Shown piece by piece: positions 6,223 through 54,375 of a DNA stretch of 64,000 bases (positions are counted from its first letter, which is position 1; each line of letters begins with the position of its first letter). Source of the DNA: Parcubacteria group bacterium (lineage in GTDB: Bacteria > Patescibacteriota > Minisyncoccia > Moranbacterales > UBA11712); the NCBI GenBank assembly GCA_041659065.1, contig JBAZYY010000005.1, forward strand, positions 974 through 64,973, given 5' to 3'. Under the pieces are notes generated by a model, which did no database searches, had not been told where the DNA came from, and saw only the letters and a list, made by a program, of their open reading frames with translations. The position numbers and the translations under genes are program-made.

Positions 6223-7875
6223 CTACTGAATCTTCAACACGGTGAAATCTGTTCCCAGCCCCGGCTGGTAATCAACAGTTTGGATTTGGCTGCTTGGAAA
6301 ATTCTCTTGAATATTGTCTATTACCCCTTGATCGAATCTCATGATAACCAATTGGGATGGAGCGATAAGCGTGGTTGGACTAAAGTCCGGCTCCAGGAAT
6401 TTAATGTTCCCGGCCTTTTGATACGTGAAAAGCTTTATCACCTCCGCTGAAGTCTGAAGGCCGTCCTCCATCTGGATTCCCGGCCCGTTGTCTACCACAT
6501 ATTTCGGCATGGCCACGGGCAGCTGATTCAAGTAATTCGAGACATTCATATAATTTTGATCAAATGCTCCGTGGACATCCTTGCTACCGCCCCAATCAAT
6601 AAAGTATTGTTTCACGGACCAGATCCCACTTCCTACTATTGCGATGATCAAGAGCCCCACGATACTTGCTTTGTATTTTTTCAGCTTCGGTGATTCCGCC
6701 CATTTCCAGGCGCCTTCAATCGCGAAAACGGCAAGCAGTACGGCAACCGGCATCGTACCGATGCTTCGCAGGGCATGCGGAAGTCCCTCCGCGCTAATGG
6801 CCTCCGGCAGAAGCATCGCGAAAAACCAGGACAAGAGAAGGGAGACAAGAATCAAGCGTTCGCTTCTTTCCCCTGGGCGGACCCTCCGCCAAACGAGATA
6901 GAAAAATTCATAGATGAAATAGAAAAATCCTGTCAGAAAAAATATTCCAATAATAGGAAAAAGCTCCGGCCACGGCGGGAGATTGTGCCTCCAATTTTGG
7001 TCGCCCCAAAACGTGTACTGGGCGAGAGAAAGGCCGAAAGTTTTTCCAAGTGTCAGGAAAAGGTGGCCTTGATTTACTTCGGGATTGAAAACCGAAACCT
7101 GACTCGTCCGTCCGCTGAAATGATCGGGATGAATATAAAAATCAACCAGCATCGGGATTGCGACTAAGACCGCCGCCGCCAAAAAAGCTGCAATTTCCTT
7201 CCAATGCGTCGCCAGAAATCTTTTGCGGCTCACAATAAACGCAAGTAAGAGGACAACTAGAATTAAAGGCGCGATGCGAAAAGCAATGTATGTATGCACG
7301 CCCAGTCCGAAAAAGACTCCCGCTAAAATATAATCAACAATTTTCTTTTTTTGAATGCCGCGGATGAGAAAGAATACCGCAAAGACTAGAATAAACGGCA
7401 GCATGATTGCCCGAAAAGAAATACGGCTGAAATTAATTGCCCAAAAAGTCGTCGCGGTGATAAATCCGGCGATTATGCCTGCCCTACGGCTAGCAAACAA
7501 TTCTTCCCCTAAGAGAACCATGCCCAAGACCGTTAGTGTCCCGAAAAGAATTGACCATATCTTGAGAGTGACGACACTAACGCCAAAAAATTGGAAACCG
7601 AGAGCGATTAAGTTCATGAAAAGCCCCTCGCGGCCGTTATTGTTTTCGTAAAAAACTTTCCAGTTATGGCTGGCATTCGCCGTAATTGCGTCCACGCCAT
7701 TTACGGCTTCATCGGGATATACGCCCGGCGGCAAAGAGTTGATGTGATACGACCGCACAAATAAAGCCAGTAAAACCACCAACGCAAAGAGAATAAAATA
7801 TGTTTTGCGGCTGATATCTTTCCTTTCTTTCTTCGCCCTTCGAAGCTTTAGCGAAGGAGGGTTTGTTTTTTTCAT
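6223..7875 (-). CDS. Polytopic membrane glycosyltransferase, GT39/GT83 (PMT/ArnT-like) family
   Basis: The 550-aa product has at least 10 predicted TM helices. Its N-terminal region has the typical ArnT/PMT topology, and the first loop carries a YPDEAVNG-type motif. No finer assignment is possible. Confidence 0.55.
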   Translation of the reverse strand: MKKTNPPSLKLRRAKKERKDISRKTYFILFALVVLLALFVRSYHINSLPPGVYPDEAVNGVDAITANASHNWKVFYENNNGREGLFMNLIALGFQFFGVSVVTLKIWSILFGTLTVLGMVLLGEELFASRRAGIIAGFITATTFWAINFSRISFRAIMLPFILVFAVFFLIRGIQKKKIVDYILAGVFFGLGVHTYIAFRIAPLILVVLLLAFIVSRKRFLATHWKEIAAFLAAAVLVAIPMLVDFYIHPDHFSGRTSQVSVFNPEVNQGHLFLTLGKTFGLSLAQYTFWGDQNWRHNLPPWPELFPIIGIFFLTGFFYFIYEFFYLVWRRVRPGERSERLILVSLLLSWFFAMLLPEAISAEGLPHALRSIGTMPVAVLLAVFAIEGAWKWAESPKLKKYKASIVGLLIIAIVGSGIWSVKQYFIDWGGSKDVHGAFDQNYMNVSNYLNQLPVAMPKYVVDNGPGIQMEDGLQTSAEVIKLFTYQKAGNIKFLEPDFSPTTLIAPSQLVIMRFDQGVIDNIQENFPSSQIQTVDYQPGLGTDFTVLKIQ

Positions 7876-8079
7876 TGAATTTTGTTTTGTTATTTAACGC
7901 TGTCTATTATTATAGTACAAAAGAGAGCTTTTCGAAAAAGCCCTCTTGGTTTCGGATGATTTAATCTCATCAAAATGAGTGCTACTGATTTAAATCCGTA
8001 TTACATCCTTAATTTTTGCATTTTGAATTTGTATATATCCATGTCTTAATTTTTTCTTCGCCAACAAATTCTCCCGAGA

Positions 8080-35227: not shown

Positions 35228-35296
35228 AAATTAAAAGTTAAAAATGTCATGCCCTAGGCAGATCAGCCTATGGCTGAAAAAGTTAAAAGTTTTTAG
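35228..35296. repeat. AAAAGTT-type heptamer repeats flanking a CCTAGG-centred segment, between mutM and the TrmB gene
   Basis: The two flanks are aaattaaaagttaaaaatg ... gaaaaagttaaaagttttt. Confidence 0.5.
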
Positions 35297-35306
35297 ATTC
35301 AATCAC

Positions 35307-36089
35307 TTAGCTCTCGCTTTCGTATTGCTTAGCAATCTTCCACAAAGTTTCAAAAAATTGCTTGTAGCTACCAGCAATAACACGGCTTGATATAGTGAAA
35401 TTTGTCACTGGTTCTCCAAAAATGTTGAACCCGATCGCTTCCGGCCAGATGTTGGTGTTAACCATTCCGGTGAATAACCCTGGCAAGACCCGATAATCAA
35501 AAATCTTTCGGCTTCTTTTACTTTTTCCCAGATATTCCTTTTGATCCTCGCTTCCAATGTACCGAGTGGATATTTTTTTAGCGAGGCGCAGTTTTTCATA
35601 CGTTTTAATTTCTTCTCCCATATTTTCGGAAAATTTATCCCCAGCGCCGCCGATAATAAGGAGTTCCGAATTTCCCGGAGCTAAATTCAGCAGGTCAAAT
35701 TCGTGAGTAGTATATGACTCTTTCCCTTGAAATACTTCGAATTCATTCCGAGTTGGAATCAAAATCATTTCATTTAATTTTTCCGCGACTTCTTCCGCCA
35801 TTCTTTTTTGACGGTCGATCATCCCCACTAAGGTTTTTGGATTTTTCGCGCTGAATTTTTTGCGGCCGTGCTTCACTATATGCTGTACCAGTCCTTTTTG
35901 CTCGAGAGTCTCCAAAGAATTATAGATAAATTGGCCATGCAGGCCGGTTTTCTTCACAATTTTTGAACTCCCAACTTCCCCCAGCTCCAAAAGCGCCAGA
36001 TAGACCAAAGCCTCTTTTTCCTTGAGCCCCAGCTCTTTTAGACTGGCCTTAATTCCACTATTATCATTTTTATCAATATTTATTGACAT
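35307..36089 (-). CDS. TrmB-family transcriptional regulator
   Basis: The N-terminal wHTH KEALVYLALLELGEVGSSKIVKKTGLHGQFIYNSLETLEQKGLV is present. The gene is divergent from the carbamoyltransferase operon. Confidence 0.7.
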   Translation of the reverse strand: MSINIDKNDNSGIKASLKELGLKEKEALVYLALLELGEVGSSKIVKKTGLHGQFIYNSLETLEQKGLVQHIVKHGRKKFSAKNPKTLVGMIDRQKRMAEEVAEKLNEMILIPTRNEFEVFQGKESYTTHEFDLLNLAPGNSELLIIGGAGDKFSENMGEEIKTYEKLRLAKKISTRYIGSEDQKEYLGKSKRSRKIFDYRVLPGLFTGMVNTNIWPEAIGFNIFGEPVTNFTISSRVIAGSYKQFFETLWKIAKQYESES

Positions 36090-36150
36090 TATTCACAATA
36101 TTAGCCTTTTTATAGCTCCATTGTATCACATATTTTATCATCAATCAATA

Positions 36151-36179
36151 TTGACATTATCCCATTTTTATTATATACT
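36151..36179 (+). promoter_or_regulatory. Candidate sigma-70 promoter TTGACA-N17-TATACT for the carbamoyltransferase operon
   Basis: The promoter reads ttgaca ttatcccatttttatta tatact. It lies about 155 nt upstream of ATG 36335, so a long 5' leader is implied. Confidence 0.45.
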
Positions 36180-36334
36180 TTAGCGTCACAGTAGAAAACT
36201 CGACTTTGAGAGTGAGAATATTAATAAAGCTTATACTCCACGATAATCTAAAGTAAAATCAGAGAGTTTTTTCGAGATCACCGTAATCACTGAAAATCAC
36301 CTATTCTCGAAAAATTTACAAATAATTAGAGACT

Positions 36335-38749
36335 ATGAAAATTATCGGCTTCAATTTAGCTAGAACTTCCTACGGGCTACCGCTTGATAATGGCGGCGCT
36401 TGTTTGATTGTGGACGGAAAAGTCAAAATGCTAATCAGCGAGGAAAGACTTAATAGAAAACAATATTCTCCTGGGTTTAAAAGAAGCTTCAGCTATATTT
36501 TGGAAAATAATAAACTTTCAATAAATGATATTGATTATTTTGTAGCCAGCTCTTGTTTGGAACCGTTAACCAATCCAAAAATAGTGCAGGTACAATTAAA
36601 GCGCTATGGATTCAACATGCCATTACGTAAAATCAAAGTGAGCGATCATCATTTGTCGCATGCTTTTTCTGCTTATTATCCATCCGGATTTAATGAGGCA
36701 ATTGTTTTGGTGTTGGACGGAGATGGAAATGTGTTGACGGAAAAAATGAAATCTGGAACGGATAACACAAAGAAATATTGGCAAAACAAGATAGAGCATA
36801 ATAGTTATTACGTCGCCAAAGGAAATAAGATAAATTTTCTCGAAAGAGACGAGGTTGAAGCTGGTGAAAATGGTTTTGGCGGGGCATATAGATACTTCAC
36901 TTATTTTTGCGGGTTTCCCGGCTATAAATACGCCGGAAAATTAATGGGTTTATCAGCCTATGGAAGCAAGAGAAATAAGTTCAAAGATATAAAATTATTT
37001 GATTTACTTCCCAACGGCCAAATTAAATGTCTGCTTCCGGATTCCGACAGATTGAATTCCCCAAAAGTTGTTGAAAACTGGCTGAAGAAACAGGGAATCA
37101 AAATTAAAGCTCGAAATCCGCAGGATCCCATTACGGAGGATACTGAAGATATTGCTTTTCTGATGCAAAAGGAATTGGACAGGGCGTTGATTCATAAAGT
37201 CAATTATTTGGTGAAAAAAACGGGAATAACTAATCTTTGCATTGCAGGCGGCGTGGGCTTAAACGCAGTGACTAATAGAGCTATCTTAGATAACACAAAA
37301 ATAAAAAATATCTTCATCCAGCCAGCGGCTGGGGACACTGGACAAGCGCTAGGGAATGCATATTTTGGAGTTTTTAATTTTGATAAAAAAAATATCAAAA
37401 GGAATTTAATTTCTGTGTATCAGGGGAAAGAATATTCGGAAAAAGAAATTAAAAACGCTCTCAATAATGAAAAACTAGTAATTGATTATCAGAAAATGTC
37501 TTTTGATGAGTTATCCAAATTAGCCGCAAAAAAAATAAAGGAAAATTATATCATTGGCTGGTTTCAAGGCCGTTCTGAAATGGGTCCGCGAGCGCTGGGA
37601 AATCGAAGTATTCTCGCAAGTCCGGCCAGCAGCAAGATGAAAGACGCTCTTAATCTCAAAGTCAAACACAGAGAAAACTTTCGGCCGTTTGCCCCAAGTG
37701 TTTTGCGAGAAAAAGTAAGCGAATGGTTTGATATTGATTTCGATGCTCCATATATGATATTCAACGCGCAGGTCAAGCAGCCAAAAATTATTCCGGCCGT
37801 GACCCATAAGGACGGCAGTGCCAGATTGCAAACGGTGAGCAAAAAAGATAACGAGCATTACTATAAGTTAATTAAAGAGTTTGAAAAACTGACAAAAATT
37901 CCGGTTGTCATAAATACATCCTTTAACGATAACGAGTCAATTGTGGAAACGCCGCAGGATGCTTTGAATTGTTTTTTGCGAACCGGCATAGATTATCTTT
38001 TCTTGGGAGACTATTTCGTTTCGAAAAAATCCGGGTTGATAGATCCGGCAAAAAATCTGAAAGAGATTGACAATGCCTGGAGTAAAATTGCCTCGCAAAC
38101 CAGCAAGATCCAAAATGCGAAAAACAAAGTGCTAAATTCGAAGATTTTATCGCTGACGAAAAAATATATTTCAAAAGGAGGGAATATATTCGATTACACC
38201 TGCGAATGGGGGGAGTACGCTAATCTGTTGGCTGAAAATGGATACGAAGTCAACGCCCTGAATGAATCCAACCAGATGATTCTTGGGGCCAGAAAAAAAT
38301 TCACAAAGCCAACATTTTATACCAAAAAAGAATTTCGAAAGAATTTTCCAATCTTGCGGGAAAAGTTTGATCTTGTCATGTCGAATCTCTGGCTGTGCAT
38401 TTTGGAAGAAAAATATCACGGAAAATTCATAGAAAATCTAAAAAAGATGGCGAAAAAAGATGGCTTGATTATGCTAAGTTTCTGCCATCCTGCTTTTGAC
38501 TATATGCGAGACAGTATTGTGACGCGCAGGATAGTCGACTATTCTCAAGCCCGCTACGATAAAAAATTCAAGCACAAAAAAATTGTCCATGAAAATGGTT
38601 TGGCGTTCGACGATTATCACCGCCCTCTGCCCTATTATATTTCGTTATTCAAAAAACATGGATTAAGAATTGTAGATATCGCTGAAAGTAAAACACTGAA
38701 TACGAATTATTATCCCGATTTTATTATTTTTGTACTAAAAGTTAAATGA
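36335..38749 (+). CDS. NodU/CmcH-family carbamoyltransferase fused to a C-terminal class-I SAM-methyltransferase-like domain
   Basis: The N-terminal region has a Kae1/ASKHA-like Carbam_trans_N pattern (KIIGFNLARTSYGLPLDNGGACLIVDGKVKMLISEERLNRKQY). The central region carries the Carbam_trans_C hallmark AVTHKDGSARLQTV. The C-terminal roughly 230 aa are paralogous to the stand-alone methyltransferase at 39429..40151. In the fused copy the SAM motif I is degenerate: DYTCEWG versus DYGCGWG in the stand-alone copy. Confidence 0.8.
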   Translation: MKIIGFNLARTSYGLPLDNGGACLIVDGKVKMLISEERLNRKQYSPGFKRSFSYILENNKLSINDIDYFVASSCLEPLTNPKIVQVQLKRYGFNMPLRKIKVSDHHLSHAFSAYYPSGFNEAIVLVLDGDGNVLTEKMKSGTDNTKKYWQNKIEHNSYYVAKGNKINFLERDEVEAGENGFGGAYRYFTYFCGFPGYKYAGKLMGLSAYGSKRNKFKDIKLFDLLPNGQIKCLLPDSDRLNSPKVVENWLKKQGIKIKARNPQDPITEDTEDIAFLMQKELDRALIHKVNYLVKKTGITNLCIAGGVGLNAVTNRAILDNTKIKNIFIQPAAGDTGQALGNAYFGVFNFDKKNIKRNLISVYQGKEYSEKEIKNALNNEKLVIDYQKMSFDELSKLAAKKIKENYIIGWFQGRSEMGPRALGNRSILASPASSKMKDALNLKVKHRENFRPFAPSVLREKVSEWFDIDFDAPYMIFNAQVKQPKIIPAVTHKDGSARLQTVSKKDNEHYYKLIKEFEKLTKIPVVINTSFNDNESIVETPQDALNCFLRTGIDYLFLGDYFVSKKSGLIDPAKNLKEIDNAWSKIASQTSKIQNAKNKVLNSKILSLTKKYISKGGNIFDYTCEWGEYANLLAENGYEVNALNESNQMILGARKKFTKPTFYTKKEFRKNFPILREKFDLVMSNLWLCILEEKYHGKFIENLKKMAKKDGLIMLSFCHPAFDYMRDSIVTRRIVDYSQARYDKKFKHKKIVHENGLAFDDYHRPLPYYISLFKKHGLRIVDIAESKTLNTNYYPDFIIFVLKVK

Positions 38750-39432
38750 TTACTATGGAAACAAATGAAAAAGTGGAGACAAGCAATCTTCAGAAGGTAT
38801 CGTTCGAACAAATAGAAAAAGCTTTTATGGAATTCAAGGAAAAAGCTAACAATCCATACTATGTGGCTATTTTCGGAAAAACATTTTTGGATGAAACTAC
38901 TGATGAATATAAACTTACCAAAGAAGTCGCGCGAAAAGTGATTGAAAATGATCTGGGAGTTATTCACGGCGCCTATACCGGTGTTATGAAAGCCGCCAGC
39001 CAAGGAGCTGATGCGGCGATTCAAAAATCCAATAAAAGCGAGTATCTAAATATTGGAGTACCGATGAAAACTTTTGACGAAGAATTGCCAAAGGCGTCAA
39101 GGATTAATTTGCCGGCCGCTGAAACAATCGGGGATAGAAAGAAAGCTCTGATTGAGTTTTGCGATGTCTGCGTCGTTATGCCTTCTGGCGGTTTTGGGAC
39201 AATGCTGGAATCATTGGAGATTTTCCATATGAACCAATTAGCTGAAAAGTTTGGAGGAAAAGTACGGCCGCTGATTTTTGTTGGCGAGAGATGGAATATA
39301 ATATTCAAGGCACTATATGATAATTTGGATATGAACAAACAAAAGACTGGAGAAAGTTTTTGTCATTTTATCAAAAATATCGAGCAATTGGAGTTGATAT
39401 TAAACGAAATAGAACTAAAAAAGGAAATATGA
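38746..39432 (+). CDS. LOG-family protein (TIGR00730 Rossmann-fold nucleotide 5'-monophosphate N-glycosidase / 'lysine decarboxylase-like')
   Basis: The GAYTGVMKAASQGA and PSGGFGTMLE (PGGxGTxxE) signatures are present. The start overlaps the upstream stop in an ATGA arrangement. Confidence 0.75.
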   Translation: MITMETNEKVETSNLQKVSFEQIEKAFMEFKEKANNPYYVAIFGKTFLDETTDEYKLTKEVARKVIENDLGVIHGAYTGVMKAASQGADAAIQKSNKSEYLNIGVPMKTFDEELPKASRINLPAAETIGDRKKALIEFCDVCVVMPSGGFGTMLESLEIFHMNQLAEKFGGKVRPLIFVGERWNIIFKALYDNLDMNKQKTGESFCHFIKNIEQLELILNEIELKKEI

Positions 39433-40151
39433 AAAACCAATGGGGGGAAATAGCAAAAAAGGAGAAGGAGATTCAGGATGTTAAAAATAAAATCCTGAAT
39501 GATAAACTTCTCAAGCTGATTTCGAAATATTCTAGGAAAAGAGGAAAAGTTCTTGACTATGGTTGCGGATGGGGTGAGTTTGCGGATATTTTAAGCCAGA
39601 AGGATTTCACGGTATCAGCGTACGATGACGCCGAGGAAATGGTTGCACGTGCGAAAGAAAAATTTGAAAAACCGAAATTTTATACCAAGAAAAAATTTCA
39701 CAAAAATATTCATAGCTTGAAAAGCAAGTTTGATTTAGTTGTTTCCAATCTTGTACTATGTATACTAAAAAAACCGCAACAGGATGTTTTATTGAAAAAT
39801 GTCAAAATGTTATTAAAAAAAGACGGTACAATAATCGTCAGTTTCTGCCATCCATGCTTTGATTATATTACCGAGAGCGTGCTGGCAAGAAGGATTAGAC
39901 CCTATACATACAATCCAAAATACGAAAAAGAATTTAAGTACAGAAAGATAATTCATGAAAACAGAATTCAATTCAACGACTATCATCGCCCACTAGAATA
40001 TTACACATCGTTATTTAATGAGCATAACCTGGAAATAATAGATATTGCCGAGAGTGATGTTATAAAATCCGAATTTTATCCTGATTTTATTATATTTGTA
40101 CTGAAAAATAGAAAAGCCGCAAAATCGACAAAACAAATACTAATATCTTGA
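39429..40151 (+). CDS. Class-I SAM-dependent methyltransferase, paralog of the C-terminal domain of 36335..38749
   Basis: Motif I VLDYGCGWGEF is intact. The start is placed at MKNQWGE, which has an AAGGAA ribosome-binding site and an ATGA overlap with the LOG stop. The ORF track gives an upstream ATG at 39360 inside LOG. Confidence 0.7.
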   Translation: MKNQWGEIAKKEKEIQDVKNKILNDKLLKLISKYSRKRGKVLDYGCGWGEFADILSQKDFTVSAYDDAEEMVARAKEKFEKPKFYTKKKFHKNIHSLKSKFDLVVSNLVLCILKKPQQDVLLKNVKMLLKKDGTIIVSFCHPCFDYITESVLARRIRPYTYNPKYEKEFKYRKIIHENRIQFNDYHRPLEYYTSLFNEHNLEIIDIAESDVIKSEFYPDFIIFVLKNRKAAKSTKQILIS

Positions 40152-40243
40152 TGTATGCAATATTATTGCTGCTCAAAAAAAGATTTATGAAATATTTTTT
40201 TATCTTATTGCCGGCCATCTAGCCTGCTAATGCCGTGAGCAAA

Positions 40244-40969
40244 TTACCTTATTCCATTCCAGCACATTTTGAAGATCATTCTCATCGCTGAAGAAATGGG
40301 CTCTGATTCCATAATGACAGCCATCTTGTCTCGCACTGAAAATAAAGCGACTCGATTGGCATAAACATTAATTTCAATTTTAAAAGGATATTCTTCGGCA
40401 TCTATGACTTTTAATTTTCTTAACTGATGGCTGGCACTTTTAATGAAGGCCTGTGCTTCCTTGTCTCCGGTCATAATTAATGTTTCCAAGATTTTTTTTC
40501 GTTGCCTCTTGGCCACATACCGCTCAACTTCTTTCCAGTTGAACATTTTCAAAACTTCGCCCGATGCCCAGCCAGTCACTTCCATATTGGGATAATTCAA
40601 AATATCTTCATAGGCCTCCAAAATTCCTGCTTTGCCGTGATAAAACCATACCTTCGGCTTAAGTTCACTGACATTGTTAATAGAAATCAAATCGGGAAGT
40701 ATTTGGTCAATGAGTGATTCTTTTTTTCTTATCAGCTCCTTTAGATCGTGAGGATCTATTGCTACATAATGCCTTCTCTTGCCTTTTGTGGTCACTCGCA
40801 TATAGCCCAAATCGACCATTTCGTTGATATTTTCATATACCGTTGTTCTCTTAATGCTGGTTTTCCGAGATATTTCGACAATGGTTGTTTCCCCGAGCTC
40901 AAGAGCTGCCAGATATATTCTGGCTTTTTTATCTTCTAAGCCTATTTTTTTGAGTGTTTCGAGTATAAT
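40244..40969 (-). CDS. TrmB-family transcriptional regulator with an apparent non-AUG start
   Basis: The ORF track begins at Met 40819. However, the frame stays open upstream and encodes a complete TrmB-like wHTH (KIILETLKKIGLEDKKARIYLAALELGETTIVEISRKTSIKRTTVYENINEMV). This region has no ATG/GTG/TTG. An AGGAGA Shine-Dalgarno lies 3-6 nt before ATT/ATA codons (40967-40969 / 40964-40966). Confidence 0.5.
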   Translation of the reverse strand: MILETLKKIGLEDKKARIYLAALELGETTIVEISRKTSIKRTTVYENINEMVDLGYMRVTTKGKRRHYVAIDPHDLKELIRKKESLIDQILPDLISINNVSELKPKVWFYHGKAGILEAYEDILNYPNMEVTGWASGEVLKMFNWKEVERYVAKRQRKKILETLIMTGDKEAQAFIKSASHQLRKLKVIDAEEYPFKIEINVYANRVALFSVRDKMAVIMESEPISSAMRMIFKMCWNGIR

Positions 40970-41088
40970 TTTCTCCTAAATGTCGCTTTTTTCGACGATA
41001 TTATTATAATATTATTCTTTAATACTTTAGTCAAATACAGCTAAAAAAAGCCAATATTTTATTACCATGCAAATAATCTTCCTATTAT

Positions 41089-41116
41089 TTGACGTTTTTT
41101 ACGAAAAAGCTATAAT
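41089..41116 (+). promoter_or_regulatory. Candidate sigma-70 promoter TTGACG-N16-TATAAT for the radical SAM gene
   Basis: The promoter reads ttgacg ttttttacgaaaaagc tataat, about 100 nt upstream of ATG 41218. Confidence 0.4.
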
Positions 41117-41217
41117 GGTGAGTCATTTCGATTCAAGAAATGGCGCGAACCTTACCAACTAATTCATCAAATCAGACTTTAATAGGATCACTCAAGACCG
41201 CCAAAGGAGATATCGCT

Positions 41218-42807
41218 ATGTTTACGAGAGTCGCCCTGATTCAACCCGTTGTCCCTGCCGGAAAATCTTTGGGAGTTCACAAATCTCCGGAGTCAATCCA
41301 GGCTTTGGCCGGTCAGCTGCAAAAACTGGGCTGCGAGGTCAAAATGTTTCATGCGACCGATAGCAACACTCTCTACTCGGCTATCCACGGATTCATGCCA
41401 CGGGTTGTTTGTATTTCAACCATGACGGCTAATTTTCCCGAAGGCCGCAAAATTGCCCAGGCTATCAAAAATTCCAAGCGCGGCCGCTATATTAAAATTA
41501 TTTTGGGCGGCTGGCATGCCTCCGGGTGCGTGAAAGCTTACGAGTCTGGTCAGGAAAAAGAAAGTCTCGAGGAAATCCTCAATCCTAGTTCTCCGTTTGA
41601 CTATGTTGTCGCCGGTGAGGGAGAAAAAGTGCTGCCAAAGCTAATCAAGGCTATCCAGAATAATTCTGGGATTATGTCACTCAAAGGAGTGAGCAATTTT
41701 AGCGGTGGATCTATCCAACTTGGCGGCTTTGCTCCAAGAGTAAAGGATCTTAGCCAGCTGGCACAGCCGTCGTGGGATGAATTGAACGTTAACCAATACC
41801 GGGATAAAAGGAATGACGCGCTTGATTTGAGTGTTCACTTTAATCGCGGCTGCCGGTTCAACTGTTCTTTCTGCGCAACAGCCTCGATTTATGGCCACGG
41901 CGTCCGGACTACTCCAGCTCAACAGGCGTTCGAGTATATCGAATTCCTGGCGCAAAAATTCCAACCGCAAGTAATCACTTTCACGGATGAAGATTTCTTT
42001 GCCAATCTTCCCTGGGTGAAACAACTGGTGCGATTGCTGCAACAGGCGGACTTTCATCACAAGTATGGGATTTTCTTTGACACCTTTGCCAGCATCGTCG
42101 ATCTGAATCGTTTGTTTAGGCATAACCAGATGCAATTGCTTCGTCAAATGAAATCAGTCGGATTCAATTCCTTCACGATTGGAATAGAATCCTTATGTAT
42201 CCCCATATTGAAAAAGTACAATAAGGAACAGATGATCCTGTCGACCATGCTTCCAGGGCAAAAGAAACTTTACAAAGAGAGGAAAGAGTCCGCTCTCGAC
42301 GGGCTAAGGCTCTATAGACACAACTTTTCAACTGTTCAACGTGCCGTAAATTTCGCCCACGGGCTCGGATTTCTGGTAGTGGGTGACTATATTCTTGGCA
42401 ACTTGGAGGAATCCGCCACTGATGTGGTGTTTAGCTTCCGGCTTTTGGAGAAAATCCGGAATCTGATGATGGCTTATCTGCCAGTCTACACGCCCTTTCC
42501 GGGAACCGCGCTTTGGCCCGAAGCTTACACTTCCGGCTGGCTGGCCCGAAAGTCTGATGGGAGAATCGATTGGGAAAAATTTGACGCCAATGGCGGCGCC
42601 TTGAATCTTGGCTACGACATCGCCTCGCTGCGCAATCAGCTGGAAATCGAGTTTTACACTTCCAAGCGCTATGCCGATGACATGCTAGCAATGATCGAGC
42701 AGGATTCTCGGCGGAAAAAGTTCTTTCTCAATCGGTTCAATTACCTCGATCGGATTTATCCTGGCGACCCGCAAATAATCCAACGACTCGCGTATTTACG
42801 AGGCTAA
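41218..42807 (+). CDS. Cobalamin-binding-domain radical SAM enzyme (class B radical SAM family)
   Basis: An N-terminal B12-binding-like Rossmann domain (VVCISTMTANFPEGRKIAQAIK...IILGGWHASG) is followed by the radical SAM cluster motif HFNRGCRFNCSFCAT (CxxxCxxC). The start is chosen at MFTRVALIQ, which is preceded by an AAAGGAGA ribosome-binding site; the ORF track gives 41140. Confidence 0.8.
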   Translation: MFTRVALIQPVVPAGKSLGVHKSPESIQALAGQLQKLGCEVKMFHATDSNTLYSAIHGFMPRVVCISTMTANFPEGRKIAQAIKNSKRGRYIKIILGGWHASGCVKAYESGQEKESLEEILNPSSPFDYVVAGEGEKVLPKLIKAIQNNSGIMSLKGVSNFSGGSIQLGGFAPRVKDLSQLAQPSWDELNVNQYRDKRNDALDLSVHFNRGCRFNCSFCATASIYGHGVRTTPAQQAFEYIEFLAQKFQPQVITFTDEDFFANLPWVKQLVRLLQQADFHHKYGIFFDTFASIVDLNRLFRHNQMQLLRQMKSVGFNSFTIGIESLCIPILKKYNKEQMILSTMLPGQKKLYKERKESALDGLRLYRHNFSTVQRAVNFAHGLGFLVVGDYILGNLEESATDVVFSFRLLEKIRNLMMAYLPVYTPFPGTALWPEAYTSGWLARKSDGRIDWEKFDANGGALNLGYDIASLRNQLEIEFYTSKRYADDMLAMIEQDSRRKKFFLNRFNYLDRIYPGDPQIIQRLAYLRG

Positions 42808-48126: not shown

Positions 48127-48981
48127 TTATTTGTTATTTTTATTAGACAAAGAGGGAAGTCTTTTGCCTTTTAAAATTTTTGCATTCTTGGCATTTATAA
48201 CGCTTTCGCCTGTTTGTTTTTCTATTTCAAGTCTGGCTTTTTTTGCCGCAAAGCCGCCTCTTCGCGCCACTTTTTTATTTTCTTCCAGTCCTTTAGGTTT
48301 TTGTTTCTTGGATATTTCTGTTGTTGAAACTTCGGCAAGCATATTTAAAACCAATTCGAGATTGGTCATATTGTCTCTCAAATTTTCTTTTTTCAGTCCC
48401 TTGAACTTTTTATAGTCTCTCACGCTTCTGTCCGCCCATGCCCTTGTGATCTCATCCGTCAATATCGCGTATTCCAGTCCTTCTTTCATTTCCCGTTCTT
48501 GCCATTCATCGGTCAATTCTTTTCGCACTTCAATGCTTTTCAAGCGCTGGTTTATCCATTCCTTTGAATAGCCTTTTCGCAAATATGTTTTCATCGCTCT
48601 GTCAAAAGCCAGCTCGGGATCTTCCATTTCTTCTATTCGCTCATATCCAACGCGCGCCAGCCAAAGCTTGATCGGCTCGACTTTCGGGCTGGGGACAGAT
48701 TGGATGAGGCGCAACAATGTTTCAACATCCGCAACATCGGTCATTCTCATTTTTCCATCTGGAGCGACCATTTTCAAACCGTTACATTTTGTAACGGTTT
48801 CATTTGATCCCTCGTCAATCAGGCGTTTTTTGAGTACACGCCAATATACTTGTGGATTTTCGCTATCCGTCAGTACAGCAATAATATCAACGACCGAAAA
48901 ATACCAAAGTTCTTTTTCCTCGTCCCAAAGCCGGCGGATTTCTTTGTTTTCAAAAATGGCAATGCGTTTTTCTTTTTTCAT
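48127..48981 (-). CDS. Bro-N domain protein (DinD / phage antirepressor-like)
   Basis: The N-terminus RIAIFENKEIRRLWDEEKELWYFSVVDIIAVLTDSENPQVYWRVLKKRL is a typical Bro-N/KilA-N-like module. A long helical C-terminal region follows. Confidence 0.6.
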   Translation of the reverse strand: MKKEKRIAIFENKEIRRLWDEEKELWYFSVVDIIAVLTDSENPQVYWRVLKKRLIDEGSNETVTKCNGLKMVAPDGKMRMTDVADVETLLRLIQSVPSPKVEPIKLWLARVGYERIEEMEDPELAFDRAMKTYLRKGYSKEWINQRLKSIEVRKELTDEWQEREMKEGLEYAILTDEITRAWADRSVRDYKKFKGLKKENLRDNMTNLELVLNMLAEVSTTEISKKQKPKGLEENKKVARRGGFAAKKARLEIEKQTGESVINAKNAKILKGKRLPSLSNKNNK

Positions 48982-49243: not shown

Positions 49244-49927
49244 TTGATGCAATTCAAGCCGAACGATGTCAAAAAATTTAAAGACGTTTGTGATGAAAAC
49301 GATATTATCCCAGTGATTTTAAAGGAAAATCTGGCAAAATATTTTGTTGAACCGATTCTTGACGTCGGCTCCGGGAAAGGAGAAATCATGAGTCAATCTT
49401 TTCCTGAAAAAAGAGTTATACATATTGATATTCAAGATTTCTCCGAATTTAAAATTTCCCAAAATCATACGAGAGAAATAACTGATTTTTTTAGCTACGA
49501 GCCGCAAGAAAAAATTGGCACGGTTTTTTTGTCCCACGCTCTTCAATTCATCGACGATGACATCGTGCTGCTCAACAAAAAATTATCAGAAATATCACCA
49601 GATTATTTGGTTGTTGTCGCAAACACGAATAAGGATTTCATGGGCGATTTGCTGACATGGATTGAAAAGAACTTCAAAAACTCAAATCCCGAGATTGAAT
49701 TGCTAGATTTTCCACGGGGATACGTCCCTGTCGAATCTGCGCCTTTCACGGCAAAAGTTGAATTGCCAGATTACGATCAACTGGCACTGCAAATTGCATA
49801 TTTATTTGATATTCGTTTGAAACAAGCAGAATCAAGTTTATTGGCAAATTATTTGAGTCAAAAGTTAAGCGCTCCGTCTTTTACGATTGATCAGGAGATA
49901 AAAGTTTATAGAAAAATAAATTCATGA
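49244..49927 (+). CDS. SAM-dependent methyltransferase-like protein
   Basis: Motif I ILDVGSGKGE is present. Its stop overlaps the start of the next gene (ATGA at 49924-49927). Confidence 0.6.
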   Translation: MMQFKPNDVKKFKDVCDENDIIPVILKENLAKYFVEPILDVGSGKGEIMSQSFPEKRVIHIDIQDFSEFKISQNHTREITDFFSYEPQEKIGTVFLSHALQFIDDDIVLLNKKLSEISPDYLVVVANTNKDFMGDLLTWIEKNFKNSNPEIELLDFPRGYVPVESAPFTAKVELPDYDQLALQIAYLFDIRLKQAESSLLANYLSQKLSAPSFTIDQEIKVYRKINS

Positions 49928-51222
49928 AAGAAACAGCTTCCGCTAATCTCCCAACAAAATACGGCAACTTTATTATAAAAGCCTGGCCCGAAAAACTCGG
50001 TTTTGAGCCAGTCGCTTTGATGACTCAAAAAATAAATACGAGCAAGCCTGTGCTTGTGAGGGTTCACAGCGAGTGCTTGACCGGCGACACATTCGGGAGT
50101 TACAAATGCGATTGCGGCGTCCAGAAAGAAGAGGCCTTGAAGCTGATTTCAAAATCAAGCACGGGTGGAGTGTTTATTTATTTGAAACAGGAAGGCAGAG
50201 GGATTGGTTTATATGAAAAAATAAAAACATATCATCTTCAAGAACAGGGATATGACACGCACGAAGCAAATATCATGCTCGGCCACAAGCCAGACTTGCG
50301 GGAATATAAATGGGTCAAAAAAATTCTCGACGATTTGGGTATTAAAAAAATCAAATTGATAACCAACAATCCGTCAAAAATCAGCGAGATCTCAAATTTG
50401 GGAGTTGATGTTGCCGAAAGGATTCCTCTTGTGATGAAAAGCAACGAATACAACCGGAAATATTTTGAAAGCAAAAAGGCAAAATTTAAACATTTTTTCG
50501 GAAAAGATATCAGTAATTATTTTTTTGGCATTTCGGGTGTGACGAATTCCACAGAAGTTGAATCTATTGGAGATTTTATGAAAGGCAGAAAGAGGGATCC
50601 CCTTCTGAAAATTTGTTTGGGCATAGCGTTGAATAGAAAATTACTATCAAACGAAAATTTAATAAAAAATATAGAAAAAACGTTCAAAGCCGCGGAATAC
50701 TATGAAGGCTTTGTCCCTATCCTGCACTATTCTTTCCGCTATTCCAAAAATCCCCTCGATGATCTTTTGTTGATCCGAAAATCAATGCCCTTTGTCCAAT
50801 ATATTCAGCTTAATGATCTTTCTTCCAGCTTTTTGAAAGTTTTGAATTATGCAACTAAATATTTCCTTGTTGATTTTCCCCTTTCAAATAATAATTTTAA
50901 CTTGGTCGATAATAGTAAATTTATCGATTTGACAATAAAAAATAAAGTTTTTGTTTTGCTGGATAATAGCGGAGGGAAAGGGAAAAAAGAAAAAGCGGAT
51001 GTTTATCTTTCAAAAATCGGGAAATGTCTTCAAAAAGGAATAAACGATATCGCGCTCGCCGGTGGTTTTGGTCCGGATAACCTTCGCGCCTACCTTGAAG
51101 CAAAAGATTATTTTAAAATAAATTTCTCAATTGATGCCGAAACCGGCCTCAAAACAAACCGGAAACTCGATATGAAGAAAGTAAAGAAATACCTAACAAA
51201 GCTATTAATCAATAAGGGGTGA
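49924..51222 (+). CDS. GTP cyclohydrolase II (RibA) fused to a C-terminal TrpF/PRAI-like (phosphoribosyl-isomerase TIM-barrel) domain
   Basis: Residues 1-200 align throughout with RibA: ANLPTKYGNF, RVHSECLTGD, CDCG, QEGRGIGL, QGYDTHEAN, LITNNPSK and ERIPL. Residues of about 205-432 follow the TrpF pattern: FFGISGVTN (cf. KICGIT), VLLDNSGGKGK (cf. LLD..GGSGK.FDW), LAGGFGPDNL (cf. LSGGLNPENV), and INFSIDAETGLKTNRKLDMKKVKKYL (cf. VDVSSGVE..G.KD..KI..F). Confidence 0.8.
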   Translation: MKETASANLPTKYGNFIIKAWPEKLGFEPVALMTQKINTSKPVLVRVHSECLTGDTFGSYKCDCGVQKEEALKLISKSSTGGVFIYLKQEGRGIGLYEKIKTYHLQEQGYDTHEANIMLGHKPDLREYKWVKKILDDLGIKKIKLITNNPSKISEISNLGVDVAERIPLVMKSNEYNRKYFESKKAKFKHFFGKDISNYFFGISGVTNSTEVESIGDFMKGRKRDPLLKICLGIALNRKLLSNENLIKNIEKTFKAAEYYEGFVPILHYSFRYSKNPLDDLLLIRKSMPFVQYIQLNDLSSSFLKVLNYATKYFLVDFPLSNNNFNLVDNSKFIDLTIKNKVFVLLDNSGGKGKKEKADVYLSKIGKCLQKGINDIALAGGFGPDNLRAYLEAKDYFKINFSIDAETGLKTNRKLDMKKVKKYLTKLLINKG

Positions 51223-51333: not shown

Positions 51334-54300
51334 ATGGCAAATAAAAACGGGCCGAATCCAGCCCTTCACGGAGCGCACGAAGAAGACGTCCAGAGAGTGC
51401 TGGCAAAAATGAAACACGAATCCGAGGAACAGCAAGCCGCCAATCTGGCCGGTAGTTTAGGTATACCCTATGTCGACCTCAATATTTTTCCGATTGACCC
51501 GGAAACTTTGCGGACAATTCCCAAAGAAAAAGCACTGGAACACCAGATCGTATGCATCCAAAAATTCGGAAAGAATATCAGCGTGGCACTTGCTAATCCG
51601 GCAGATGAACTAGCAGCAAAATATCTTGAGCAACTAGAAAAATCCGAGGGATATAAAATCAAAATCTATGTTTGTTCGAGCACGGGCCTCCAAAAGACAG
51701 TTGAGCGCTACAAACATATAGCTTTGTCGGAAAATCTCGAAGAACTGCGTTTGACCTTGTCCGGATCCGACCTTGAGGAATTTGAAAAAAACCTTAAAGA
51801 TGTCATTGACCTGCAAAAAAGAATCAATGAAATCCCCACCACGGAGGTCATTAATATTGTTATGGCCGGAGCCGTAAAGATGGAAGCGAGCGATATTCAT
51901 TTTGAGCCTCAAGCAGAGGGTATCCGTTTGCGTTTTCGCCTCGATGGCGTACTGCAAAACATATCCATTCTCCCTTCCTCGGTCTATCACTATATCTTAT
52001 CTCGGGTCAAAGTCCTTTCGGGGATGAAAATAAACATCCGTGATATCTCGCAAGACGGGCATTTTTCCATAAATCTAGAAGGAAATGAAATTGATGTTAG
52101 AGTTTCGATCTTGCCGGGAAACTACGGCGAAAATATCGTAATGCGGCTCCTCAACCAGGCGGTGGTGGCACTCAAATTTGACGACTTGGGCCTTAAAGGC
52201 CTGGCTTACGATAAACTGCGAGAGGAAATCAAAAAACCAAACGGCATGGTCCTCAACACAGGCCCGACCGGGTCAGGAAAAACCACCACACTCTACGCCA
52301 TTATCAACCAGCTTAACTCTCCAGAAGTAAAGATAATTACAGTAGAAGATCCGATTGAATATAAGATCAAGGATATTTCCCAAACTCAAGTATCCCGTTC
52401 TCGTGGATACACTTTTGCCAACGCCTTGCGCGCTATTGTGCGTCAGGATCCGGATGTTATTCTTGTTGGAGAAATTAGAGATGATGAAACAGCCAGCATA
52501 GCGCTTCACGCGTCCCTAACCGGGCACCTCGTACTTTCAACCCTACATACCAACAGTGCTATTGAAACAATTCCGCGCCTCATTGATATGGGGGTTAAGC
52601 CTTCGCTCCTGCCAGCCGCGGTCAACGCGTTCATCGCTCAACGACTGGTGCGAAAACTTTGTCCGCATTGCAGAGAAGAATATGCTCCCGCCCGGGAAAC
52701 CGTGGAAAGCGTCAAAAAAATACTAGCTGTTATATCCCCAAAGGCCAAACTTACCATTCCAAAAGAAATTAATAAATTCTACCGTGCCGGGGGCTGTTCC
52801 AAATGTCATGGGCTGGGCTATAAAGGACGCGTCGGTATCTTTGAAATTTTTACTCTAACAGAAGAGATCAGCAAAAGGGTGACTGAAATGGCGCCTGAGG
52901 CGGAAATTTTGTCGTTAGCGCTTGAAGCTGGCATGATTACAATGCTCCAGGATGGAATTCTCAAGGCGCTTGACGGTGTCACTTCGCTTGAAGAAGTGCA
53001 ACGCGTCACGGGGGAAGGTAAATTTTTGGAAGAGCTCTACGAAAAAATCATATCGCAGCTACTGCTGCGTTCGATTGTAATTACCGTAGATGATGGAACT
53101 GAAATCGAAACACTCAAGAGTGACCTACCGAAATTGAGAGAGCTGGTAAAAGCATCCCCCCCGGAAAAATCTCTGCGCCTCATCCTGGCTGGCGGTCTAA
53201 AGCTCGCTGCAGGAGATATTCACATCGAACCGGAGGAGGAATCGGTGAAAATACGCTACCGTATTGACGGAATATTACAGGACGCAGCCGAAATTCCCAT
53301 CACTGAATACCCTCAGCTATTGGGAAACCTCAAAATTCTCAGTGGTTTCAAGGCCAGTGATACCGAGCAAGGAGTAAGAGACAGTCGATTTGGAATAAGC
53401 CTTGAAGAAGGCGCAATGCCTGAAATCAAAGAGAGAGAGATTGATGTCCGTATTTCGATAATCTTAGGCGGTTACGGCGAAACAGTCGTCATGCGGCTCC
53501 TTAACCAGTCAGCGCAAGCTCTCGAGATTGAAAAACTGGGAATCAGGCAGCAGACTCTCGATAAGATACTCAATAAAATTCGAAAGCCTAACGGCATCAT
53601 CCTGAATACCGGCCCGACTGGATCCGGAAAATCGACTACGCTTTATTCCATCTTAAGCATTTTAAACAAACCTGGAGTGAAAATTATAACCGTTGAGGAT
53701 CCGATTGAATACCGCCTCAAAGGGATTTTGCAAACGCAGGTTGACGACAAAAAGGGCTATACTTTCCCAAAAGCCCTCCGCGCGCTTCTTCGCCAAAATC
53801 CAGACATTATGATGATTGGCGAAATTAGAGATGGCGAAACCGCTCAAATTGCCGTCCAGGCGGCTCTCACCGGCCATTTGGTTCTTTCTACGCTGCATAC
53901 TAATAATGCCGCCGGATCTGTGCAGAGGTTGATCAATATGGAAGTCAGCTCTACTGATATTGCATCTTCAGTCAATGCATTCATGGCGCAAAGGTTAGTG
54001 CGACTTCTATGTCCAGACTGCAAGAAACCAGTGCCTCTCGATGAAAAGACAAGGGAACATTTCACAAAGATACTGGAAACGATTTCGGATAAGACGGGGG
54101 TTGAAATCCCCGGCCTGGACAAAATAACAAATATTTACGCAGCGCAAGGTTGCGAGAAGTGCAACAGAATTGGCTATAAAGGCCGAACAACAGTAAGTGA
54201 AATTCTCGAAGTCACCAAAGAAATGGAAGAACTTATCACGCGCGGTCCGACAACATCCGAAGTTGAGGACCTTGCGATCAAACAGGGAATGCTAACCATG

Positions 54301-54375
54301 ACTCAGGACGGAATTCTGAAAGTGCTGGAAGGCATAACCAGCCTCGAAGAAATTGGCCGAGTCACGGAAGAATAA
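51334..54375 (+). CDS. Tandem-duplicated (double) GspE/PilB-type secretion ATPase with N-terminal GspE-N domain
   Basis: There are two complete N1+ATPase units. The first has Walker A LNTGPTGSGKTTT (about 52264), VEDPIE, ILVGEIRD, GHLVLSTLHTN and CPHC...CSKCHGLGYKGR. The second has LNTGPTGSGKSTT (about 53608), VEDPIE, IMMIGEIRD, GHLVLSTLHTNN and CPDC...CEKCNRIGYKGR. Both end ...LEE(V/I)(Q/G)RVT(G)E. Confidence 0.85.
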   Translation: MANKNGPNPALHGAHEEDVQRVLAKMKHESEEQQAANLAGSLGIPYVDLNIFPIDPETLRTIPKEKALEHQIVCIQKFGKNISVALANPADELAAKYLEQLEKSEGYKIKIYVCSSTGLQKTVERYKHIALSENLEELRLTLSGSDLEEFEKNLKDVIDLQKRINEIPTTEVINIVMAGAVKMEASDIHFEPQAEGIRLRFRLDGVLQNISILPSSVYHYILSRVKVLSGMKINIRDISQDGHFSINLEGNEIDVRVSILPGNYGENIVMRLLNQAVVALKFDDLGLKGLAYDKLREEIKKPNGMVLNTGPTGSGKTTTLYAIINQLNSPEVKIITVEDPIEYKIKDISQTQVSRSRGYTFANALRAIVRQDPDVILVGEIRDDETASIALHASLTGHLVLSTLHTNSAIETIPRLIDMGVKPSLLPAAVNAFIAQRLVRKLCPHCREEYAPARETVESVKKILAVISPKAKLTIPKEINKFYRAGGCSKCHGLGYKGRVGIFEIFTLTEEISKRVTEMAPEAEILSLALEAGMITMLQDGILKALDGVTSLEEVQRVTGEGKFLEELYEKIISQLLLRSIVITVDDGTEIETLKSDLPKLRELVKASPPEKSLRLILAGGLKLAAGDIHIEPEEESVKIRYRIDGILQDAAEIPITEYPQLLGNLKILSGFKASDTEQGVRDSRFGISLEEGAMPEIKEREIDVRISIILGGYGETVVMRLLNQSAQALEIEKLGIRQQTLDKILNKIRKPNGIILNTGPTGSGKSTTLYSILSILNKPGVKIITVEDPIEYRLKGILQTQVDDKKGYTFPKALRALLRQNPDIMMIGEIRDGETAQIAVQAALTGHLVLSTLHTNNAAGSVQRLINMEVSSTDIASSVNAFMAQRLVRLLCPDCKKPVPLDEKTREHFTKILETISDKTGVEIPGLDKITNIYAAQGCEKCNRIGYKGRTTVSEILEVTKEMEELITRGPTTSEVEDLAIKQGMLTMTQDGILKVLEGITSLEEIGRVTEE

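Follow-up and report, generated by a model that had tools for sequence, protein, structure and literature searches.

What might a bacterium of the candidate phyla radiation (CPR; Patescibacteria) do with an operon that couples a carbamoyltransferase (CT) to a LOG-family nucleotide hydrolase and a methyltransferase (MT)? The question is raised by a contig of a Parcubacteria group bacterium (JBAZYY010000005.1, assembly GCA_041659065.1), of which a stretch of 64,000 nucleotides, hereafter the window, was analysed; three of its genes encode a CT fused to an MT-like domain (gene 1), a LOG-family protein and a stand-alone MT (gene 3). Bacteria of the CPR account for a sizeable part of bacterial diversity and are usually regarded as lacking biosynthetic capacity; to our knowledge, hardly any specialised metabolism is ascribed to them. 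An earlier note on this DNA proposed a small-molecule or glycan tailoring locus composed of the three genes and several of their neighbours. The comparisons described here indicate that CT, LOG and MT form a real module, and the reading that we prefer, with about an even chance of being right, is the cytoplasmic tailoring of a nucleotide-derived small molecule with the LOG as deglycosylase. Nucleotide or small-molecule tailoring, as the earlier note had it, thus appears to be the best reading of the sequences.

Conservation of the three-gene module

The three open reading frames (ORFs) occupy the strand and coordinates claimed for them (36335-38749, 804 aa; 38746-39432, 228 aa; 39429-40151, 240 aa from its ATG), and the ATGA overlaps reported at both junctions can be read directly at 38746-38749 and 39429-39432. 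In the NCBI annotation the LOG gene starts 9 nt, or three codons, later (38755), giving a 225-aa record that is 100% identical and is named 'LOG family protein [Parcubacteria group bacterium]'; with this start the coupling is still tight. Pfam and NCBIfam bear out the enzyme assignments of the earlier note (a CT with a fused MT-like domain, a LOG and a class-I MT), and all three proteins are soluble, with 0 hydrophobic segments.

Homologues of the 804-aa protein fall into four groups: the CT-MT fusion itself, in roughly 40 clusters (57-89% identity); numerous CTs with no fused domain and a length near 565 aa (62-70%); a pair of CT-LOG proteins (P0077, 774 aa, from Candidatus Uhrbacteria, and P0078, 739 aa); and, at a greater distance, unfused CTs some 555 aa long (44-51%). 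A search with the LOG profile added an MT-LOG fusion (P0160, 479 aa), the MT part of which is about 22% identical to gene 3, so that fusions are known in all three pairings. Gene order was compared in 14 LOG-anchored metagenome loci (about 10 of them non-redundant) and in the contexts of CT homologues, all scanned with profiles built from the window proteins. The LOG is directly downstream of, or fused to, a CT of the window's clade in 14/14 LOG-anchored loci, and an MT is present next in nearly all of them (Table 1); at least 14 more pairs of CT and LOG matches lie on contigs of identical size, and the module has so far been met only on CPR-type contigs. Because the adjacency is conserved and all three pairwise fusions exist, the three activities can be taken as linked, and the conserved neighbourhood predicted for the core stands. 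The profile searches that the earlier note had proposed were run, and for this core they revealed neither a HypF/Kae1 identity of the first protein, nor an unconserved neighbourhood, nor a loss of LOG catalytic residues.

Table 1. Arrangements of the module (hyphens join fused domains, semicolons separate genes, slashes join entries listed together)
Arrangement	Loci
CT-MT; LOG; MT	window/L090, L091-L094, L087, L101, L102 (L095 partial)
CT; LOG; MT	L096, L097, L099 (1.1-Mb contig)
CT-LOG; MT	L002/L003/L100, L098
MT; CT-LOG	L086/L103
CT; LOG, with secY and adk on either side	L004/L005
CT-MT; LOG	L106/L107
CT-MT or CT, without LOG	L001, L104, L105, L088

A few related loci depart from these patterns. 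In L104 (6435-9385), a gene for a LigT/2H phosphoesterase (188 aa) overlaps the start of the CT-MT gene (TAATG) and is thereby translationally coupled to it; in this lineage, the fused MT is intact and the LOG is missing, and the phosphoesterase would give the CT a further partner that processes nucleotides or RNA ends. In L001, which likewise has no LOG, a 145-aa ORF follows the MT and has neither a Pfam match nor a match to the LOG profile. L089 (925-9337) carries a more distant CT (50% identical, with Asn-Asp at the catalytic-His position) in a different cluster, alongside two radical SAM genes (one of them B12-binding), a PqqD-like protein, two HisRS-like paralogues and an S66 (MccF-like) peptidase; judged by its gene content, this cluster resembles a natural-product locus of peptide or aminoacyl-nucleotide type.

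Features of the three enzymes

Residues 1-568 of gene 1 score 133.2 bits against Carbam_trans_N (cut-off 24; 1.9e-38) and 229.1 bits against Carbam_trans_C (cut-off 27; 3.1e-68), and share with the class III O-carbamoyltransferases (TobZ, GdmN, NovN, NodU, CmcH) the two-domain architecture of Kae1-like and YrdC-like parts, with matches to solved structures in the range of 1e-60 to 1e-64 (TobZ, 3ven, 2.6e-64; GdmN, 5.4e-63; NovN, 6.1e-60). As the HypF model (23.7 bits, cut-off 466.1) and the TsaD models (20.8 bits, cut-off 296.1, in NCBIfam; 16 bits, cut-off 24.8, in Pfam) remain far below their cut-offs, a HypF/Kae1-type maturation factor is excluded, and the TobZ/NodU class named in the earlier note is upheld. 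The metal ligands H105/H106/H109, D128 and D334 are invariant across the clade, as are the YrdC-like, carbamoyl-AMP-forming motifs GPRALGNRS, K444/R446/R450 and NTSFN, which align with those of TobZ; the roles of the metal ligands and the class III mechanism have been described (PMC9633730). On these grounds, the protein would be a carbamoyl transferase that uses carbamoyl phosphate and ATP.

The window CT nevertheless differs from the known members of the class. The general-base His of TobZ (His20, chain numbering) and GdmN (His27) is replaced by Asp18, and the corresponding pair of positions reads Asp-Asn in 73/75 members of the clade and Asn-Asp in 38/42 more distant relatives, whereas generic CTs are mostly His-Asp/Glu (43/76, in a crude alignment). 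The outgroup for this comparison consisted of generic NodU-like CTs, 31-41% identical, from a profile scan of genome contigs with the CT alignment; that scan returned generic NodU-like CTs only and did not reach the CPR clade, and peptide patterns proved too general. Given Asp18, the acceptor chemistry of the CT may differ from that of known O-carbamoyltransferases. Further differences are the C-terminal appendage of the window clade, which is an MT-like or LOG domain, and the partners of the enzyme, which are nucleotide enzymes here, in contrast to the polyketide, aminoglycoside or Nod-factor pathways of the known CTs.

The best NCBIfam match of the CT is NodU (NF041651, 2.9e-50), which, together with a weak NodS Pfam match of the MT (27.1 bits) and the position of one module locus (L087) beside mraY, ftsW and murG, would suit the alternative offered in the earlier note, a NodU/NodS-type carbamoylation and methylation of an amino-sugar oligomer, or else, as envelope tailoring, of a cell-wall precursor. 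The NodU score of 171.6 bits, however, is far from the equivalog cut-off of 1000; across the more than 20 loci compared, neither a glycosyltransferase nor a deacetylase nor an exporter is a recurrent neighbour, nor does any transporter or carrier protein recur beside the module; the obligate partner of the CT is a nucleotide hydrolase; and all three proteins are soluble. Glycan tailoring is accordingly given up as the alternative model, being very unlikely.

The LOG protein scores 40.2 bits against PF03641 (Lysine_decarbox; cut-off 27, 4.6e-10) and also matches SLOG cluster4 (2.8e-8). Its AlphaFold2 model (pLDDT 90.8) finds as its top Foldseek matches the type-II LOG 5zi9 (3.2e-12), YgdH and PpnN, with a probability of 1.00 for 5zi9, 5wq3, 9us2 and PpnN; the fold is shared with these proteins (E of 3e-12 to 1e-9, TM up to 0.79) at only about 22% identity. 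Across 24 members of the LOG clade, R131 and G148/G149-x-G151-T152-x-x-E155 are invariant, so the catalytic Arg of the RK motif and the Glu of GGxGTxxE are retained, and the protein would cleave the N-glycosidic bond of a nucleoside 5'-monophosphate (NMP), the chemistry being that described for LOG enzymes (PMC8989509; PMC11228631). Unlike type-II LOG, YgdH and PpnN, the clade has HG[GA]YxGxM in place of GGGxGxM, a Pro of the PGG motif that is shifted or not conserved (PSGG), and a clade-specific FHxNQLxxKFGG; the window protein lies below the cut-offs of TIGR00730 and of the PpnN family model (32.6 against 450), reaching neither of these curated subfamilies, and the clade always occurs alongside the CT. 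Only 34 word-sharing relatives were found, and a profile search through 1.84 billion representatives returned 18 clusters at E up to 1e-30, past which significance declines to about 1e-15 at roughly the 35th match. By these measures, the LOG clade has few members and stands well apart from generic LOGs. One further protein, P0179 (3016 aa), gave 27 separate matches to positions 56-100 of the LOG profile and may be a repeat protein.

SLOG domains occur in defence systems, such as Thoeris ThsA, and the SLOG cluster4 match in a mobile cassette could therefore indicate an anti-phage or conflict system with an SLOG-type nucleotide sensor or effector. PADLOC, however, gives nothing for the CT or the LOG and a generic match only for the MT, no relatives were found on viral contigs, the catalytic residues of the LOG are kept, and typical effector domains were not seen; of all the explanations considered, this one deserves the least credence.

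The two MT copies differ in their predicted competence. Gene 3 is a clear class-I MT (Methyltransf_23, 3.1e-16) with the motif I DYGCGWGE and an acidic beta2 residue (Asp), as the class requires, whereas the fused domain of gene 1 matches Methyltransf_11 weakly (4.3e-7), reads DYTCEWGE at motif I and has Asn for the beta2 Asp (ALNES). When 38 fused MT domains were aligned with 13 stand-alone MTs, the canonical motif I (DYGCGWGE) and beta2 Asp were present in 13/13 of the latter, while 27/38 fused domains (the window's and 26 others) have Glu or Asp for the central Gly of motif I and Asn or His for the beta2 Asp; the two changes covary perfectly, and 0/13 stand-alone MTs carry them. The 11 fused domains in which the motif is kept all come from lineages without a stand-alone MT downstream (L104-L107), so each locus would have exactly one intact MT. 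One of the two METHYLTRANSFERASE copies in the window, the fused domain of gene 1, is thus probably dead, having lost the binding of S-adenosylmethionine (SAM), and the operon would have one active MT; of the methylation by two MTs envisaged in the earlier note, both domains are indeed present, but the SAM motifs of the fused copy are degenerate. Since the lid residues H141, R155, Y165, K173, H186 and R187 are kept in the degenerate copies, a substrate-binding, scaffolding or assembly role is suggested for this domain, and there is a precedent in the class III CT GdmN, which also has a non-catalytic C-terminal auxiliary domain (PMC9633730). The nearest relatives of gene 3 are small-molecule MTs acting on phospho-bases and heterocycles, and its basic lid residues are invariant; a structure-based search with the MT model returned generic small-molecule MT neighbours only and no substrate-specific clue.

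A Kae1-like CT and an MT might conceivably act together on a nucleotide of tRNA or rRNA, with the LOG as an auxiliary enzyme. This RNA-modification scheme appears quite improbable: LOG enzymes use free 5'-mononucleotides, the closest matches of the MT are small-molecule enzymes, the Pfam scan of the three proteins reveals no RNA-binding domain, and a patchy presence is not expected of a core RNA modification. Translation genes do adjoin the module, but they form so much of the gene content of these loci that adjacency by chance is expected.

A candidate nucleotide-tailoring pathway

In the pathway that we favour, TrmB1, a regulator upstream of the operon, and a divergent sigma-70-type promoter would control one translationally coupled operon in a self-contained cassette. 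By analogy with the family mechanism, the YrdC-like domain of the CT would convert carbamoyl phosphate and ATP to carbamoyl-AMP, and the Kae1-like domain would pass the carbamoyl group to an acceptor, plausibly a common NMP; the stand-alone MT would then add one methyl group, and the LOG would finally cut the N-glycosidic bond of the 5'-monophosphate, releasing either a modified free base and ribose 5-phosphate or a modified ribose phosphate and the base. The order given (carbamoylation, methylation, then release by the LOG) is the one that we infer. A nucleotide substrate is favoured because the obligate partner of the CT belongs to a nucleotide N-ribohydrolase family, because a LigT-type 2H phosphoesterase replaces the LOG in one lineage, and because the MT, with its invariant basic residues in the lid, resembles enzymes that act on small phosphorylated or heterocyclic compounds.

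Such a pathway would have instructive parallels. Cytokinin biosynthesis combines an isopentenyltransferase (IPT) with a LOG, the two being fused in Claviceps, and the fas operon of Rhodococcus fascians includes two methyltransferases; there, too, a group is transferred onto a nucleoside 5'-monophosphate, the LOG frees the modified base, SAM-dependent MTs decorate it, and the modifying enzyme can be fused to the LOG. Unlike the cytokinin route, the window encodes a class III CT dependent on ATP and carbamoyl phosphate and not an isopentenyltransferase, its LOG falls in a divergent clade of its own, in which the phosphate-binding loop is altered, nothing points to adenine N6 as the acceptor, and the CPR host has no plant link. 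In the bacimethrin route, with its enzyme roles divided among BcmA, BcmB and BcmC, and in that of mildiomycin and blasticidin (MilA/MilB), an NMP is likewise modified and then stripped of its ribose 5-phosphate by an N-glycosidase; for bacimethrin, a methyltransferase completes the free-base antimetabolite. The N-glycosidases of these routes, however, are nucleoside 2-deoxyribosyltransferase-like and not LOGs, and the modification is a C5 hydroxymethylation by a thymidylate-synthase homologue and not a carbamoylation (for MilB and hydroxymethyl-CMP, hmCMP, see PMC4081090; PMC5175136).

Several observations weigh against tailoring of this kind. The replacement of the TobZ/GdmN His by Asp means that the acceptor chemistry of the CT is not transferable from known members; the GGGxGxM loop of canonical LOG has become an invariant H74-G75-x-Y77-x-G79-x-M81; the LOG falls below the TIGR00730 cut-off (33.3 against 96.35); and no carbamoyl-phosphate source was identified in the window, where none was searched for. 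The LOG is not universal, CT-MT occurring without it in L001, L104 and L105 and the CT alone in L088, so that its reaction may be an accessory one. General NMP nucleosidases can occur among bacterial enzymes of the type-II LOG/PpnN kind, and the window LOG could accordingly act on ordinary NMPs, and in one genome the CT-LOG pair is located between secY and adk, a placement that hints at a housekeeping role in lieu of a specialised one.

These last points lead to the strongest competitor, a salvage or sanitation function, in which a PpnN-like general NMP nucleosidase would provide a CPR cell that depends on salvage with bases and ribose 5-phosphate, and the CT and the MT, instead of building a product, would inactivate or process damaged or foreign nucleotides. 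The fold of the LOG, closest to type-II LOG/YgdH/PpnN, fits this proposal, as do the secY-adk position of the pair in L004, with ndk close by, and the location of the window cassette among the housekeeping genes Fpg, HolA, PolA and TsaE. Against it stand the patchy, cassette-like distribution and the absence of the operon from a close relative, the dedicated regulator and promoter, the small LOG clade that is never found without the window's CT clade, and the lack of an evident reason to spend ATP and carbamoyl phosphate. We consider salvage unlikely, although it ranks first among the competing explanations by likelihood, followed in turn by RNA modification, glycan tailoring, an extended radical SAM locus and defence.

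For nucleotide-derived tailoring, a bolder and rather doubtful version may also be sketched. The cassette would be a mobile three-enzyme CPR pathway that turns a common NMP into a free nucleobase bearing a carbamoyl group (ureido- or O-carbamoyl) and a methyl group by a cytokinin-like logic with an Asp-for-His CT, and its product would represent a new natural-product class, possibly a diffusible signal or antimetabolite of an episymbiont.

The cassette, its control and its flanks

The limits of the cassette emerge from comparison with L109, a related Parcubacteria genome whose B12-binding radical SAM (rSAM) gene is 73% identical to that of the window and the closest on a long contig. The two are syntenic for HolA, DUF3048, Fpg, TrmB and rSAM and later for PolA and TsaE. 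The single TrmB gene of L109 is 79% identical to the downstream TrmB2 of the window and 24% identical to the upstream TrmB1, and the gap between Fpg and TrmB2, about 55 nt in L109, is 5.0 kb in the window, where it holds TrmB1 and the operon; homology ends at 35246 and is back by 40257. GC content is 0.33-0.41 within the cassette as against 0.42-0.50 in Fpg, DUF3048, rSAM and PolA, and no target-site duplication or repeats were found at the cassette ends. The stretch of about 35247-40243 may thus be read as an indel, most simply as an inserted, horizontally acquired cassette (Table 2). Tyrosine-recombinase (Phage_integrase) genes lie directly downstream of the module in L087 (10877-11839) and a few kb off in L001 (16010-16918), which is consistent with mobility of the cassette.

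Table 2. Features of the cassette and its downstream flank in the window
Feature	Coordinates	Strand	Remarks
Putative inserted cassette (TrmB1 and three-gene operon)	35247..40243		missing from L109, a related Parcubacteria genome, at the syntenic position
TrmB1 regulator, TrmB family, 260 aa	35307..36089	-	PF01978 6.5e-14; divergent from operon
Promoter/operator block	36136..36179	+	TATCATCA 36136-36143, N7, TTGACA 36151-36156, N17, TATACT 36174-36179
5' leader, ~150 nt	36186..36334	+	between promoter and CT start
Class III CT module (Kae1-like and YrdC-like), residues 1-568	36335..38038	+	PF02543 1.9e-38, PF16861 3.1e-68
Fused MT-like domain, residues 576-804	38060..38749	+	paralogue of gene 3; probably without SAM binding
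Divergent type-II LOG-family nucleotide N-ribohydrolase, 228 aa	38746..39432	+	PF03641 4.6e-10; alternative start 38755
Class-I SAM methyltransferase, small-molecule type, 240 aa	39429..40151	+	Methyltransf_23 3.1e-16; predicted active from its motifs
TrmB2 regulator	40244-40966	-	PF01978 2.3e-12
B12-binding radical SAM gene	41140-42807	+	B12-binding 2.1e-11, Radical_SAM 2e-11

The promoter claimed upstream of the operon, TTGACA-N17-TATACT, was recovered as an 11/12 match to the sigma-70-like consensus and as the best match of a region in which promoter-like matches otherwise occur at chance level (21 found, 19.3 expected from shuffles); its leader measures about 150 nt. The promoter gains credibility because the block TATCATCA-N7-ATTGAC (with the -35 box) and the -10 box 17 nt further on is conserved in four loci, being invariant in the window, L001, L096 and L102. 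An 18-nt direct repeat containing ATTGACATTAT occurs at 36075-36092 and 36143-36160 (copies AATATTTATTGACATTAT and AATCAATATTGACATTAT, spacing 68 nt), one copy lying on the start codon of TrmB1 and the other on the -35 box of the operon, and the two are candidate operator sites for autoregulation and control of the operon. TrmB1-type genes are also divergent and upstream of the CT gene in L001, L002/L003/L100, L096 and L102, and a Pfam TrmB gene lies upstream of the module in L086; TrmB1 is hence likely to be the cognate regulator of the cassette, which places the regulator outside the span given in the earlier note. In L001, 1.3 kb with three small ORFs (6695-8000) separate TrmB1 from the CT gene. 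A riboswitch or other structured leader was considered and rejected, as no Rfam family matches the leader, its folding is not more stable than that of shuffled sequences (z-score of the minimum free energy +0.60), and its length is not conserved, ranging across loci from some 35 nt to over 1 kb.

Downstream, the TrmB-type regulator on the reverse strand and the B12-binding rSAM gene with its CxxxCxxC motif are both genuine by Pfam and motif. The rSAM protein, with PF02310 and PF04055 matches and CRFNCSFC at residue 238, is a class B radical SAM enzyme that reaches no curated subfamily (best TIGR04013, 89.2 against a cut-off of 251), and it has its own promoter, an 11/12 match at 41089, as claimed. 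These features and the adjacency of the genes would favour the extended locus of the earlier note, in which the operon, TrmB2, the rSAM enzyme and perhaps RibA serve one pathway. Their membership was not sustained: L109 has the order Fpg-TrmB2-rSAM-PolA-TsaE, with TrmB2 and rSAM adjacent in the absence of the operon; the rSAM family of the window is absent from all other CT/LOG module loci scanned; and no CT, LOG or MT occurs in the other rSAM contexts examined. Because the operon stretch is most simply an insertion, lacking in syntenic L109, the adjacency of the rSAM gene appears accidental, and a joint pathway is highly improbable. About 55 close relatives of the rSAM protein occur in Parcubacteria, Gracilibacteria and DPANN archaea (Woesearchaeota, Micrarchaeota); among the window, L109 (7001-8584), L110 and L111, the gene forms a divergent pair with TrmB2 in two genomes and stands with PEP-utilizer-domain genes in others. 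Other annotators place the rSAM start near Met27 (524-529 aa).

TrmB2 extends beyond the 191-aa ORF fragment originally listed, which lacks the helix-turn-helix (HTH) domain. It has no ATG, GTG or TTG start, the window reading ATT ATA CTC GAA (with AGGAG before it) where L109 reads ATT ATG CTG GAA, and is otherwise intact (79% identity across 239 aa); the use of ATA or ATT, the loss of the start or a sequencing error may account for this.

RibA (49924-51222) is 10 kb off, beyond PolA and TsaE, and never adjoins the module; its position and conservation are unrelated to the operon, and the proposed link was therefore rejected. At 432 aa and with a TIGR00505 score of 220 bits, RibA itself is a genuine GTP cyclohydrolase II, an odd presence in a type of genome usually without riboflavin synthesis, and its C-terminal extension of about 240 aa has no family match. 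The PRAI partner credited to it did not materialise, Pfam and NCBIfam scans of the RibA gene and its upstream neighbour revealing no PRAI domain; that neighbour encodes a 227-aa protein and overlaps the RibA gene (49244-51222 for the pair, forward strand), and it has weak methyltransferase-like matches only. Also in this part of the window are a gene for a Bro-N domain protein of phage- or mobile-element-like type (48127-48981, reverse strand) and, near it, a gene (51334-54375, forward strand) for a 1013-aa protein with two T2SSE ATPase stretches and an MshEN domain (a tandem PilB-like ATPase).

All parts of the module come, by sequence, from known superfamilies. No account of the module emerged from literature searches that combined carbamoyltransferase and LOG, phosphoribohydrolase or SLOG with Patescibacteria or nucleoside antibiotics, and in the literature searched none was found of a conserved cassette in which fusions link CT, LOG and MT, of its confinement to CPR-type contigs, of a CT clade with Asp in place of His, of the distinct LOG clade or of the pair of active and degenerate MTs. 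The last of these would offer a clean case of pseudo-enzyme evolution following duplication and fusion. The cassette is compact, consisting of three proteins and one regulator with its parts bound by three kinds of gene fusion, and is therefore an unusually tractable experimental target. If its product is a modified nucleobase or nucleotide, a carbamoyl branch would join the pathways that modify an NMP and then deglycosylate it (cytokinins, bacimethrin, mildiomycin), substrates would be defined both for the new LOG clade and for a CT clade with a changed catalytic residue, and the finding could point to a chemical in the interactions between CPR bacteria and their hosts.

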